This document shows, in pieces, positions 32,484-36,703 of a DNA stretch of 64,000 nucleotides. Numbering within the stretch: the first letter of the stretch is position 1; each line of letters begins with the position of its first letter. The notes below the pieces were generated by a model. The model saw only the letters and a list, made by a program, of their open reading frames with translations, searched no databases and had not been told where the DNA came from. Source of the stretch: Escherichia coli (lineage in GTDB: Bacteria; Pseudomonadota; Gammaproteobacteria; Enterobacterales; Enterobacteriaceae); the NCBI RefSeq assembly GCF_013122565.1, contig NZ_CP053258.1. The stretch is one strand, 5' to 3'. The translations under genes and the position numbers were made by a program.

Positions 32484-33395
32484 ATGCTGTGGTTCAAAAA
32501 TTTAATGGTTTACCGTCTTAGCCGCGAGATTTCGCTGCGTGCAGAAGAGATGGAAAAACAGCTAGCCTCGATGGCATTTACCCCATGCGGCAGCCAGGAC
32601 ATGGCGAAGATGGGCTGGGTTCCTCCGATGGGATCGCACAGCGATGCGTTAACGCACGTTGCCAATGGTCAAATTGTTATCTGCGCGCGCAAAGAAGAAA
32701 AAATCCTCCCGTCTCCGGTGATTAAACAGGCGCTGGAAGCGAAAATCGCCAAACTGGAAGCGAAACAGGCGCGTAAGCTGAAGAAAACCGAAAAAGATTC
32801 GCTGAAAGACGAAGTGCTGCACTCTCTGCTGCCGCGTGCTTTCAGCCGTTTTAGCCAGACAATGATGTGGATCGACACGGTTAATGGTTTGATTATGGTG
32901 GACTGCGCCAGTGCCAAAAAAGCGGAAGATACGCTGGCACTGCTGCGTAAAAGCCTGGGGTCGTTACCGGTTGTACCATTGAGCATGGAAAACCCGATTG
33001 AACTGACGCTGACCGAATGGGTTCGCTCCGGTAGCGCGGCACAGGGCTTCCAGTTGCTTGATGAAGCCGAGCTGAAATCGCTGCTGGAAGATGGCGGCGT
33101 GATCCGCGCGAAGAAACAAGATCTAACCAGCGAAGAGATCACCAATCACATCGAAGCCGGAAAAGTGGTGACTAAACTGGCGCTCGACTGGCAGCAGCGC
33201 ATTCAGTTTGTGATGTGCGACGATGGTTCGCTCAAGCGTCTGAAGTTCTGCGACGAGCTGCGCGATCAAAACGAAGATATCGACCGTGAAGATTTCGCCC
33301 AGCGTTTTGATGCCGATTTCATCCTGATGACTGGTGAACTGGCAGCGTTAATTCAAAACCTGATTGAAGGATTAGGTGGCGAAGCACAACGTTAA
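32484..33395 (+). CDS. rdgC: recombination-associated protein RdgC
   Basis: Internal start [40 protein letters not shown] gives 303 aa. Confidence 0.9.
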
Positions 33396-33414
33396 TTGCT
33401 GATTTACCTTTAAT

Positions 33415-33452
33415 GCCGGATGCGACGCCTGCCGCGTCTTATCCGGCATACG
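33415..33452. repeat. REP palindromic element
   Basis: GCCGGATGCGACGCCTGCCGCGTCTTATCCGGCATACG immediately 3' of rdgC. Confidence 0.5.
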
Positions 33453-33472
33453 AAGCCACACCGGGCATATAA

Positions 33473-33928
33473 TTATTCGCTACGGCGGGCAATAATTTTT
33501 AGCGCAGCAATATTATGCGTTTCACGCCGTAACTGATCTAATCGCCTCATCCCTATTCGCCTGTCAGCAGCACGCAGAATATTCACTAACCCCCATTTAT
33601 CGCTGGTAAATTGTTTTGTTAACAGCTCCGCTTTTGGGGTATCAATATATTCACGCAATAAATCAGAAATTGAACAAATATCCGTCAGGTAAGGATACCA
33701 GCAAGTTTCACCGTGAAAATTACGCACTCCACCGTTACCTGCAATAAAGTCTTTCGGGTAATCCCAGATCACGTTTTTATCCAACGTGATCCAATAACGC
33801 GGTAAATCGGTGCTTCCACCATTTTGGCTGCGCATGGGATAACGGGTACAGTGAATTTGCAGGTTGATCGTTGGCGTCAGTAAGTCATAGATCTCCCGCT
33901 GTAACTTGCTCCAGGGGCGTTGTGTCAT
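33473..33928 (-). CDS. hypothetical 151-aa protein, downstream partner of the 762-aa gene
   Basis: ORF start overlaps the upstream gene stop by 4 nt (ATGA at 33925-33928), implying translational coupling; no signal peptide; W/Y-rich (WITLDKNVIWDYPKDF...CWYPYL); family not recognised. Confidence 0.6.
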   Translation of the reverse strand: MTQRPWSKLQREIYDLLTPTINLQIHCTRYPMRSQNGGSTDLPRYWITLDKNVIWDYPKDFIAGNGGVRNFHGETCWYPYLTDICSISDLLREYIDTPKAELLTKQFTSDKWGLVNILRAADRRIGMRRLDQLRRETHNIAALKIIARRSE

Positions 33929-36213
33929 TGTTTTTCCTCAAGCCGGTGACGCGCTTCACTGCGAATTTTCCGCGTTGCCCCGGTTTTCACTAAATCCCGT
34001 AACTGCGAAAGATCGGGTTGATCGACAAATAAAAGTAATGATGGATCCTCTTTTAGCCACACCGTTTTCACATCGGCAGCCAGCTGTGGATTATTAATAG
34101 CCAGCGACCGATCCTGAGACTCAGTCAATGTCGTTAACAACGACGCCGGGGTATGTGCGTTGCGCAATGCCGTTTGGCGCAAATGATCATTGCGACTTTG
34201 CAGCAATGCACGCCACCATTCATCATCTGATTTATCTTTTATCGTAGCCAGTTCCGCAAAAATATCGCTATCCTCACGGTTCCAGCGGTGTAATCCTCTT
34301 TCACTTTGTCTACGGGTGCTATTTTTCATACTGACAACAGCCAGCGCCCAGTCAGAGTTGAAGCGATACTGTTGATCGAGTTTGTTGATAATTCCGGAAG
34401 GTAAATCTTTATTATCAAATAATTGGTTACGCATTCGATAGCGGTATTCAGCGGGTAAATCAACCAGTAAATCAATGGCATTATTTAACATCTCTTCGTC
34501 AACAACACCATTATCAATCAGCGCCAGCTGTACTTCGTAGGCTTGCTCTTGATCTTCTTGCCGTTTGCTCATCATTAAATTTAATGTGCGTTGCCATAAC
34601 TGTTTCTTATATTCCAGCGGCAATAATTTATCGCGTGCCAGCTCATCCCAGACGGTGGGAACATCATGCTGAGTCAGTAGATAACTAATCACTTCCTTCG
34701 ATGTCAGATAACGCGCACCTTCGCGTAAATTGTGCACATCTTCTTTTGCCAGAGACAGTTGACGCATCTCCGGCAACGCTATCAATAACTCCTTTACGAT
34801 ATTTTTATTTTCTTTATTATCCAGATACATTTGTTCTGCGATACGTTCAATATCCTCTGTACGCAGGGTTGCTGATAGTTGGGTAATTTTTAATTCAGTA
34901 AGCGTCCGGGCTAATGCTTCACGAACTTTCAGTGACTTATCTTTACTCAACATCACTGCTTGTTGTGCGGTTAAATCTGCTCCGGTAATTCTTTCACGTA
35001 ACTCCGGGTCTTCGTTATTTATCAACTCATCGGCCACTGCAGTCGGAACCAGCCAGGCGTAATCGTAATGGCTGAGTAATGTCTTGCGCACACTGAGAAA
35101 GGGGCTATGACTTAACGACGCAACAATATCTGGAGAAAGATTATCCTGTCTGGCCTGCTCCAGCTGTACACTCTCGACGGGTACAGACATTAATTTTTTA
35201 TTCACTTCAGCAGAAATATTACTGTTTTTAATCAGCCCTCTGGCAACAGCCTCATCTTTAATTAATTCATCGGTAAGCAAATGCATCTGCTGAGCAGGCC
35301 AGGACTGCGCCATCGATTCACGCGTCTGGTCATCGGGGTGCTGTAACAGTTGCAGCATAACGACGGGTGATAAACTCTCAATATGAGTCAGAAAACGTGC
35401 CACCAGTGGATCTTGATGCTTTATTTTATTCGCAGGGAAATTATCGAGTTTCCCCGTTTCAATCCATTTTAATTTCTCATTAATTTCAGGAGCGGCTTTA
35501 TCGCGAAAAAGAGGTAAACCCTGAACGATGTTGTCTGCGACGCTATCATAGTCAGGATACGCATTGGAAATATTATCGGTTTCGATTTCAGTGTGATCAT
35601 AAAGATCAGCAGTCACCAGTGAATAGGCTTTTTGGATATTCTCATCCCAGTTATATCTTTCACCACTTTCATCTTCATTGATATAAAATTCAGCTTTGAT
35701 GACCTCAAATTGCGTTGCTTTATCGGAAACAATAATGCCTCGCGCGCTAATTCCCTTCATCACTTCAAAGTTATGATCATTGTAATCAGCATAAACTAAA
35801 CCTTTCGCTGTCATCTGTCCTTTGACATATGCGAAATCATGATTAATAAAATTATCGACAATAACATTACCTAATACAATCAGATGACCATTACCTGACA
35901 GATAATCATCATAATCGCCTGAAATCGTTAAATTACCGTTCACCACCAGTTTATTTTGATTGCTGAAGTTAGCGGGTAATGACAGGTCACCATTATGATA
36001 ATACCAGCGGATATTATCTTTTAGCATATAAGCAGCTTCCATACTATCGTCGGTTGCCGCTTTAACCACGTTGCGCTCATCTGCCGTCATAAGATGAAAG
36101 TCAGAGGTGATAAGGTCCTCGCTACTGATCCACTCTGTGGCACATGCATTGCCAGTCATAAAAATTACGACCATACAGATGACCAATATATTAATTCCAT
36201 TCATAATCTTCAC
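33925..36213 (-). CDS. hypothetical secreted repeat protein, 762 aa, AT-rich strain-specific insertion
   Basis: N-terminal Sec signal peptide (MKIMNGINILVICMVVIFMTGNACA|TEW); N-terminal region rich in NG/GN/D motifs; long alpha-helical body with recurring D/S-P-x-[LV]R...A motifs (HEAT/LRV-like). K-12 has, as I recall, only the short ykiA remnant here. Confidence 0.65.
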   Translation of the reverse strand: MKIMNGINILVICMVVIFMTGNACATEWISSEDLITSDFHLMTADERNVVKAATDDSMEAAYMLKDNIRWYYHNGDLSLPANFSNQNKLVVNGNLTISGDYDDYLSGNGHLIVLGNVIVDNFINHDFAYVKGQMTAKGLVYADYNDHNFEVMKGISARGIIVSDKATQFEVIKAEFYINEDESGERYNWDENIQKAYSLVTADLYDHTEIETDNISNAYPDYDSVADNIVQGLPLFRDKAAPEINEKLKWIETGKLDNFPANKIKHQDPLVARFLTHIESLSPVVMLQLLQHPDDQTRESMAQSWPAQQMHLLTDELIKDEAVARGLIKNSNISAEVNKKLMSVPVESVQLEQARQDNLSPDIVASLSHSPFLSVRKTLLSHYDYAWLVPTAVADELINNEDPELRERITGADLTAQQAVMLSKDKSLKVREALARTLTELKITQLSATLRTEDIERIAEQMYLDNKENKNIVKELLIALPEMRQLSLAKEDVHNLREGARYLTSKEVISYLLTQHDVPTVWDELARDKLLPLEYKKQLWQRTLNLMMSKRQEDQEQAYEVQLALIDNGVVDEEMLNNAIDLLVDLPAEYRYRMRNQLFDNKDLPSGIINKLDQQYRFNSDWALAVVSMKNSTRRQSERGLHRWNREDSDIFAELATIKDKSDDEWWRALLQSRNDHLRQTALRNAHTPASLLTTLTESQDRSLAINNPQLAADVKTVWLKEDPSLLLFVDQPDLSQLRDLVKTGATRKIRSEARHRLEEKQ

Positions 36214-36347
36214 TGATATTTATATCAACCTTGATGAATTATGAATATATCGGAAATCGAAAAAATCGCAGCAAAGGAAATATTATTATGGGGTTATGAG
36301 AGGACATTTCAGAAAAATGCCCTCCCGTTCAAGGGGAAGGCGAGGAA

Positions 36348-36632
36348 TTACAGATAGCGGCACAGATAAGAGGTGGGTTCGGCAACTTGCAGATGAAACT
36401 CGCTGTGACCGGGAACATTAAACACCGAACCGGCTTCATACACTTGCCAGTCGGTCGCGTCAGGCAGTAACACATTCAGCGCGCCACTGATTACCGTCAT
36501 CTCTTCCGGCTCAGCGGTGCTGAAGGTGTATTCGCCTTCAACCATAACACCCACGCTGGCGCGACCAGTGCTGCTGCTGGAAAAGCCGATCGATTTCACT
36601 TTGCCGGAAAAGTACTCATTACTTTGAAGCAT
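36348..36632 (-). CDS. ppnP: pyrimidine/purine nucleoside phosphorylase PpnP
   Basis: 94-aa [40 protein letters not shown]..., matching PpnP (YaiE). Confidence 0.9.
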
Positions 36633-36703
36633 AAACTGGCCCTGTCTGGTAGTTGAACATCTACTTCACTATAGGGGCCAGAGGCGCTGACTGTCACGCA
36701 AAA

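Follow-up and report, generated by a model that had tools for sequence, protein, structure and literature searches.

The subject of this report is a two-gene locus lying between rdgC and ppnP in a 64,000-nucleotide (nt) stretch of Escherichia coli DNA (RefSeq assembly GCF_013122565.1, contig NZ_CP053258.1), referred to here as the window, whose coordinates are used throughout unless another locus is named. An earlier account made from the letters alone (the sequence-only reading) had placed two co-oriented genes with a 4-nt ATGA overlap at this site, and both open reading frames (ORFs) are found as placed. The large gene (33925..36213, minus strand) encodes the full-length form of YkiA, a paralog of YdbD, with 762 amino acids (aa) from a GTG start in the ORF list. 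The small gene (33473..33928, minus strand) encodes the full-length form of YkiD, a 151-aa member of the SF0329 family. The ATGA is common to the TGA stop of the large gene and the ATG start of the small gene in the sequence CAATGACA, and a GAGG Shine-Dalgarno-like motif lies upstream of the small-gene start. RefSeq starts the large gene at an ATG at 36204, three codons downstream of the GTG, which gives a protein of 759 aa, and annotates the two products of the intact form as a 'DUF2773 domain-containing protein' and an 'SF0329 family protein'.

The module is flanked by rdgC (plus strand, ending at 33395) and ppnP (minus strand, 36348..36632), the latter separated from the large gene by a spacer of 134 nt. 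The AT-richness already remarked on in the sequence-only reading is evident in the base composition: the large and small genes have G+C contents of 42.2% and 44.7%, compared to 51.6% for rdgC, 52.3% for ppnP and 50.2% for the whole window.

YkiA and YkiD of K-12 are deletion relics of this locus

K-12-type genomes carry at this position only ykiA, a 113-aa C-terminal piece which corresponds to the last 113 codons of the large gene, and the 27-aa YkiD. RefSeq describes these as a DUF2773 fragment 'missing N-terminus' and as 'protein YkiD'. The statement in the sequence-only reading that K-12 has only a short ykiA remnant here was therefore accurate, with YkiD to be added to it. Two intervals of the window are missing. 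The first, 34267..36205, removes most of the large gene and leaves a junction holding a 5-nt filler, TGGAG; the same interval is missing from Escherichia sp. MOD1-EC7003. The second, 33535..33896, is an in-frame deletion within the small gene whose ends are the imperfect 10-nt direct repeats CGCCGTAACT and CGCTGTAACT and whose product is YkiD: the published 27-aa sequence is exactly residues 1–11 joined to residues 136–151 of the 151-aa SF0329 protein, and its coding stretch is found at 2174–2257 of a K-12-type locus (L002). The ykiA and YkiD of K-12 are deletion relics of an intact two-gene locus.

Other deletions have affected the same site. Escherichia sp. MOD1-EC7003 lacks 34267–36205 alone and keeps the small-gene interval, E. 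albertii lacks approximately 34057–36215, with end points that differ from those of the K-12-type deletion, and strain CH425 has undergone a second, nested deletion from which 24 nt of the K-12-type junction remain. The chromosomal site is shared by E. albertii and Escherichia sp., where 3′ remnants of the large gene are still present. The repeated deletions, together with the shared site in E. albertii, therefore indicate that the locus already existed before E. coli and E. albertii diverged and that it has undergone repeated decay.

To assess its distribution, the region was compared by megablast with 5,426 complete E. coli genomes. The flanks were found in all but two (5,424/5,426) and at least 80% of the module in 443 (8%). 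Sequence from inside the large gene occurs in 446 genomes, for the most part O157:H7, O55:H7 and O145:H28 with scattered others, and at least 80% of the small gene in 920, so that approximately 477 genomes retain the small gene without the large one. The sequence-only reading had considered that the pair might be universal in E. coli, with K-12 merely carrying a deletion; K-12 does carry deletions of an ancestral locus, and the intact pair is confined to the 8% of genomes given above. Where retained, both genes are under purifying selection. Comparison of the window with O157:H7 gives the large gene a ratio of non-synonymous to synonymous substitution rates (dN/dS) of 0.17; for the small gene, comparison with Escherichia sp. 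and with E. albertii gives 0.075–0.09. The small protein is 87% identical to its E. albertii counterpart.

No complete E. coli genome carries the large gene of the window at 99% identity or above, the best matches being 98.2–98.3%, and one E. coli strain matches the small gene at 99.8%. Given this shortfall of the large gene, either the collection contains no close representative of the lineage of the window or the recent histories of the two genes differ. Searches of phage collections gave no match to the module proteins. Plasmid matches (tblastn against PLSDB) were rejected as mislabelled chromosomes: NZ_CP134663.1, NZ_OL790696.1 and NZ_CP141089.1, labelled as E. coli plasmids, are 4.8–4.9 Mb long and evidently chromosomes. 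These matches revealed a second E. coli locus, ydbD.

The large protein and its paralog YdbD

The sole Pfam match of the large protein is to DUF2773 (PF10971), over the full length of the model (E 2.1e-40), at residues 682–762 (33928..34170, minus strand), the part kept in K-12 as ykiA. NCBIfam, PADLOC, PHROGs and PDB sequence searches returned nothing for this protein. It aligns by BLASTP with YdbD end to end, at 28% identity over 744 of its 762 residues (E 3e-83), and this alignment identifies it at the sequence level as a full-length YdbD paralog. The statement of the sequence-only reading that no family could be recognised is thus superseded for the large protein, both by the C-terminal domain and by this full-length relationship. 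An exhaustive phmmer search gathered 168 representative clusters, some 40 of them full-length proteins of 750–810 aa.

The ydbD gene (b1407) lies in the order pdxI-ydbD-ynbABCD and its product is called a 'DUF2773 domain-containing bactofilin' in RefSeq. It is near-core, being at least 80% covered in 3,834 of the 5,426 E. coli genomes, and an SF0329-type partner gene was not found at the ydbD locus. K-12 annotation gives YdbD as a putative periplasmic protein.

Published data on YdbD are sparse. It is listed as induced by methylglyoxal and is raised 3.9-fold in a table of the sigmaE regulon (PMC2731931), and it appeared in a methylglyoxal-susceptibility screen according to the citation of that work (Kim 2007) in PMC13313352. 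Together with YnbB, it showed a fitness effect in transposon sequencing (Tn-seq) despite very low expression (bioRxiv 038851).

One apparent domain fusion among the homologs of the large protein, to a CdsA domain, was rejected as no real architecture: in some E. coli strains a deletion has joined ydbD to ynbB. The protein concerned (P0177, E. coli, 521 aa) consists of the C-terminal part of YdbD joined to a YnbB-type cytidylyltransferase segment by a deletion across ydbD-ynbA-ynbB, and is the source of a misleading CTP_transf_1 match among the homologs.

Two predicted solenoids in the large protein

The anatomy proposed in the sequence-only reading, a signal peptide, an N-terminal region rich in NG/D motifs (beta-rich in the model) and a helical body with HEAT/LRV-like repeats, agrees with the AlphaFold2 model and with the repeat matches of homologs. 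Codons 1–26 (36136..36213, minus strand) are predicted from the sequence to encode a Sec-type signal peptide with the hydrophobic core INILVICMVVIFM and an A-C-A↓T cleavage-type motif. Most full-length homologs also have a signal-peptide-like N-terminus, followed by A-E-W. The mature form has an isoelectric point (pI) of 5.0 and contains no cysteine. The large protein is thus predicted to be exported by the Sec route.

The AlphaFold2 model, built with 46 homologs, has a mean predicted local distance difference test score (pLDDT) of 91.7 and a predicted template modelling score (pTM) of 0.83. Its hydrophobic N-terminal helix (residues 8–17) is of low confidence. Strands at residues 71–179 form a solenoid of four to five turns with three strands per turn, and helix pairs run throughout residues 189–761. 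From this strand pattern, residues ~65–180 (35674..36021, minus strand) are assigned to a predicted beta-solenoid, a triangular helix similar to that of bactofilins and the MinC C-terminal domain. Residues ~189–761 (33931..35649, minus strand) are assigned to a predicted alpha-solenoid of the LRV/HEAT type from the helix pairs, homolog repeat matches and Foldseek. The repeat matches come from the family: between five and seven of the 46 homologs are significant for LRV, LRV_2 or HEAT_2, and the large protein itself gives HEAT only, at a non-significant E of 8.5. With the whole chain as query, Foldseek returned PP2A-A, importins and designed ARM proteins from PDB, which are generic alpha-solenoids in a search dominated by the helical part.

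Conservation within the YkiA/YdbD family is highest in the beta-solenoid, where an alignment of 14 diverse sequences has 17 invariant columns, among them H, D, Y and N-D. Neither the large protein nor the 46 homologs matched the Pfam bactofilin (DUF583) domain, residues 69–126 of YdbD match MinC weakly (E 0.011), and PDB sequence and profile searches with the large protein, SF0329 and the beta-solenoid alignment gave matches at chance level only. Stand-alone beta-solenoid proteins of ~208 aa occur in Streptomyces and Kitasatospora, and one homolog is labelled 'polymer-forming cytoskeletal' in UniRef. In Streptomyces sp. NBC_01439 (L099), a gene for a 503-aa LRV/HEAT protein (5496–7007) overlaps that for a 208-aa beta-solenoid protein (7001–7627), and neither product has a signal peptide. 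These split, overlapping genes support the view that the two solenoid domains act as one functional unit. A Barstar-like gene lies ~6 kb upstream in the same Streptomyces locus. Cytoplasmic versions in which the beta-solenoid and LRV parts are fused, with extra TPR tails, also exist. On these comparisons of sequence and gene order, the beta-solenoid and the LRV solenoid are a conserved two-part unit which is fused in Proteobacteria and either exported or cytoplasmic depending on the lineage.

The small protein belongs to the SF0329 family

The small protein matches NCBIfam NF049912 at residues 6–148 (94.2 bits against a cutoff of 60) and Pfam PF25753 (E 4.1e-22). Here too the sequence-only reading had named no family, and its description of the protein as cytoplasmic-looking and aromatic-rich is accurate: the protein has a pI of 9.4, 10% aromatic residues and no hydrophobic N-terminus or export signal. 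With a predicted model at pLDDT 90.7, it is a basic, putatively cytoplasmic alpha+beta protein. PDB sequence, profile and fold searches revealed no solved structural relative of the SF0329 fold.

The family is large and widespread. We collected 530 homologs at ~50–65% identity from many phyla, and GTDB species genomes with SF0329 include Escherichia, Leminorella, Photobacterium, Campylobacter, Leptospira, Bacteroidales, Clostridia, Spirochaetes, Desulfobacterales and Acidobacteria among others. An alignment of 99 sequences shows 12 invariant and ~43 near-invariant positions, including H26, C27, D110, D122 and R124. A search of the literature on DUF2773, SF0329, DUF4304, DUF4240 and the O157 locus tags yielded nothing relevant beyond the ykiA, YkiD and ydbD papers.

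Genomic neighbourhoods of SF0329 genes

Many SF0329 genes are solitary and lie beside housekeeping genes (PurL, GltX, ArgD, GyrB, RtcB). A recurring minority is found in co-directional arrays of small genes. Two Bacteroidales contigs (L009 and L010) carry SF0329 with a tyrosine recombinase, Imm10, a Macro-like gene and more than 15 small ORFs, and a Paenibacillus locus (L006) carries it with SUKH-3 and DUF2314, the latter listed as Imm34 (Zhang 2012). The 78 array neighbours examined include Imm51 (twice), Imm43, SMI1_KNR4/SUKH_6, DUF4274, DUF6985 and DUF4240. These features agree with those of published heterogeneous polyimmunity loci (Zhang 2012) and rAID-1 clusters (Ross 2019), and the presence of SF0329 in arrays with known immunity families makes an immunity-like role for the small protein alone plausible. 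No cognate toxin gene was found among the large neighbours examined (PurL, GltX, ArgD, RtcB, GyrB and a Cthe_2159 carbohydrate-binding protein), and a search for weak SF0329 paralogs within SF0329 neighbourhoods found none.

Two further associations were observed. DUF4240 proteins are encoded within one or two genes of SF0329 in Leminorella (where DUF4240 is fused to WGR), in Parabacteroides distasonis and in a Bacteroidales metagenome-assembled genome (MAG), at L004/L014 6769–7629, L019 1517–2068 and L047 6906–7433, a cross-phylum association of two uncharacterised families. In Campylobacter MAG loci (L033, L039–L040, L049 and ~20 others, at roughly 5200–10900), SF0329 sits in a conserved co-directional block encoding proteins of ~349, 212, 85, 227 and 177 aa, SF0329, and then 269 and 370 aa. 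For the protein of 227 aa there is a weak match to DUF4304 (E 0.0013), which is also the AFDB label of some SF0329 relatives.

The two genes are rarely found together outside Escherichia

The sequence-only reading had proposed a scaffold with a tightly coupled small partner. A conserved neighbourhood for such a pair was sought in other species and was found at only one locus outside Escherichia. A profile of the large protein matched none of the ORFs at 80 SF0329 loci in other species (0/80). Conversely, none of five loci encoding homologs of the large protein elsewhere has an SF0329 neighbour (0/5), or a conserved partner of any kind. In metagenome contigs of enterobacterial origin each gene stands alone: a 49%-identical large gene is located between sprT and a major facilitator superfamily (MFS) transporter gene, and a 77%-identical SF0329 gene lies near xseA and guaB. 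The exception is a metagenome contig (L011, 323–5454) with two tandem large genes (750 and 754 aa) followed by SF0329, at 48% and 69% identity respectively to the window genes; among the loci sampled it is the only one outside Escherichia in which the pairing is kept. The genes of the window probably form a two-gene operon without being an obligate functional pair.

No match to PADLOC-DB 2.0 was obtained at E ≤ 1 with either protein, with YdbD or with three SF0329 homologs. Pfam, NCBIfam, PDB sequence and fold searches revealed no toxin or enzymatic domain, the only matches being to repeats and solenoids. The predicted compartments also differ, the large protein being putatively exported and the small one putatively cytoplasmic. 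Given these different compartments and the lack of a toxin domain, the suggestion of a toxin/immunity pair or a two-gene defence system is not supported. What survives of it is the immunity-like role for the small protein alone to which the arrays point.

Transcription signals and the rdgC-proximal repeat

A terminator-like hairpin (36319..36341, minus strand), with an 8-bp stem including 6 G-C pairs followed by a T-run, lies 3′ of ppnP and upstream of the module. It is followed in the same spacer by a sigma-70 promoter-like site (36285..36312, minus strand) which matches the consensus at 9 of 12 positions. The ykiA promoter was shown experimentally to be activated by BglJ-RcsB (PMC3950696). 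The region 36206–36700, which includes the promoter spacer, is kept in K-12-type genomes when these are aligned to the window, and the site at 36285..36312 probably represents this mapped promoter.

The loci of both DUF2773 paralogs touch the BglJ-RcsB regulon, through the ykiA promoter (window 36206–36347) in one case and, at the ydbD-ynbA locus (L101, 4189–7271), through the ynbA promoter in the other. Mapping by experiment has shown the promoter of ynbA, the gene directly downstream of ydbD, to be a BglJ-RcsB target as well, and further binding sites are predicted at rhsA and rhsB (PMC3950696). At the other end of the module, a REP-like palindromic element (33413..33454) lies between rdgC and the small gene, and another copy of it occurs at a different position within these E. 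coli loci.

Discussion

We consider it probable, at roughly 60%, that the window holds the intact form of an ancestral Escherichia locus comprising two accessory genes, one for an exported YdbD-like scaffold and the other for an independent, cytoplasmic binder of the immunity type. Both families are already catalogued, and the locus is real, decaying and accessory. The biochemical roles suggested for the two proteins draw on homology and gene context. Full-length YkiA would be a non-enzymatic periplasmic binding or scaffold protein which works like YdbD, possibly in the envelope stress response given the links of YdbD to envelope stress and methylglyoxal. Its beta-solenoid could provide a conserved functional or self-associating head and its alpha-solenoid, of ~570 residues, a binding surface. 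Full-length YkiD would act alone in the cytoplasm, apart from YkiA, its likeliest role being that of an orphan protein of the immunity type that binds or neutralises a toxin acting there.

Several points weigh against this interpretation. The 4-nt overlap suggests that the two genes are translationally coupled, and contig L011 preserves their arrangement in spite of considerable divergence, which may reflect some functional link within the lineage; overlap and contig together make such a lineage-specific link possible. The export of YkiA is predicted from a signal peptide judged by eye and by family comparison. The role proposed for YkiA is modelled on YdbD, whose own function is vague and with which it shares only 28% identity. 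The immunity reading of SF0329 is a case of guilt by association, drawn from a minority of loci; the genes of the family mostly adjoin housekeeping genes, and no cognate toxin gene lies upstream of SF0329 in any locus examined. The degree of conservation, with its 12 invariant and ~43 near-invariant positions, is unusually high for an immunity protein and would be just as compatible with an enzyme or with a protein that binds a conserved target in the cell.

This last point leads to a first alternative, in which SF0329 would be a small enzyme or would bind some conserved component of the cell such as nucleic acid or the ribosome, and the arrays would merely reflect residence in variable regions. 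The fact that the family is very strongly conserved from phylum to phylum, its invariant polar residues and near-invariant H-C pair, the low dN/dS of the small gene, the basic character of the protein and the mostly solitary position of its gene beside housekeeping genes all speak for it; set against the arrays shared with immunity families, it seems to us rather unlikely.

About as doubtful is the idea that the locus is a miniature polyimmunity island, in which the solenoid surface of the large protein would neutralise effectors acting in the periplasm and the small protein would neutralise a cytoplasm-acting toxin. HEAT-repeat proteins are indeed listed among immunity proteins (Zhang 2012), some arrays hold both SF0329 and Imm families, one homolog of the large protein has a Sel1-repeat gene directly upstream, loss of the locus has happened repeatedly, and the BglJ-RcsB regulon includes predicted sites at rhs loci. 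However, at 760 aa the large protein is far above the typical size of an immunity protein, its paralog YdbD is near-core (3834/5426) and adjoins a lipid operon, its homologs are located among housekeeping genes with no toxin nearby, and cytoplasmic versions of the same architecture exist.

It is unlikely that the exported scaffold and the small partner constitute one unit, whether a toxin/immunity pair or an envelope-associated two-gene defence. The ATGA overlap, the shared promoter region, the AT-rich composition, the patchy distribution and the arrangement kept in the divergent contig L011 would all be expected of such a unit, but outside Escherichia and this contig the genes do not co-occur at either set of loci surveyed (0/80 and 0/5), and the small gene persists without the large one in some 477 E. 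coli genomes, in E. albertii and in Escherichia sp. The different predicted compartments, the lack of a toxin or enzymatic domain in Pfam, NCBIfam, PDB and fold searches, the lack of PADLOC matches for either protein or their homologs and the absence of such a partner from the locus of the paralog YdbD argue in the same direction. We hold as equally improbable a bolder extension in which SF0329 would be an unrecognised, widely transferred family of immunity proteins or toxin-reversing enzymes with a new fold, YkiA and YdbD would be the first exported bactofilin-like scaffolds, and the two would form a joint BglJ-RcsB module guarding periplasm and cytoplasm against effectors in Escherichia. Least likely is that the module is non-functional, decaying DNA even where its frames are open, for although most E. 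coli genomes carry deletions and YdbD-type proteins are very lowly expressed in K-12 (bioRxiv 038851), intact frames are kept in 443 genomes, the dN/dS values of both genes are low (0.17 and 0.075–0.09) and the small protein has remained 87% identical since the E. albertii split.

The reading as two independent accessory genes has consequences mainly for annotation and evolution, in particular for the origin of YkiD, rather than for mechanism, and it indicates no new kind of system. Two oddities of K-12, the pseudogene ykiA with its mapped BglJ-RcsB target promoter and the annotated 27-aa YkiD, are explained as relics of a locus which the O157:H7, O55:H7 and O145 lineages still carry intact and under selection, and which is linked to the near-core E. 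coli protein YdbD. The locus offers two tractable families for study. SF0329, strongly conserved, horizontally spread, with a confident predicted fold and present in arrays of the polyimmunity type, is a reasonable candidate for experiment.

Comparison with known systems

The ykiA and YkiD of K-12 belong to the very same locus; both genes are complete in the window, and K-12 is without 34267–36205 and 33535–33896. Beyond this, the large protein resembles YdbD in length and in end-to-end architecture (a signal-like N-terminus, the predicted beta-solenoid, the LRV/HEAT alpha-solenoid and a C-terminal DUF2773). The two differ in genomic setting, the large gene being present in 8% of genomes and preceding SF0329, whereas ydbD is near-core, precedes ynbABCD and lies at another chromosomal site. 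At 28% identity they appear to be old paralogs, and the methylglyoxal, sigmaE and Tn-seq phenotypes are reported for YdbD only.

The N-terminal part of the architecture can be compared to bactofilins and to the MinC C-terminal domain, with which it would share short predicted strands, three per turn, over ~110 residues, a likeness seen in the strand pattern of the model. Unlike bactofilins, the large protein has no Pfam bactofilin match, is predicted to be exported and is fused to a long alpha-solenoid. This second part is in turn similar to LRV/HEAT-repeat proteins in its predicted paired helices and its fold matches to PP2A-A and importins; it differs from them in that the large protein has no significant LRV or HEAT match in Pfam, and the fold, being generic, implies no particular function.

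The small protein, finally, is like the immunity proteins of polyimmunity loci and rAID-1 clusters (Zhang 2012; Ross 2019) in being small and sporadically distributed across phyla, and, in a minority of loci, its homologs lie as the genes of those systems do, in co-directional arrays with Imm10, Imm34, Imm43, Imm51 and SUKH near recombinases. In contrast to the immunity proteins of polyimmunity loci, SF0329 has no adjacent cognate toxin among the loci examined, most of its copies are solitary and its conservation is much higher, and in E. coli it stands outside any array, next to the intact or deleted gene of a YdbD-like protein.

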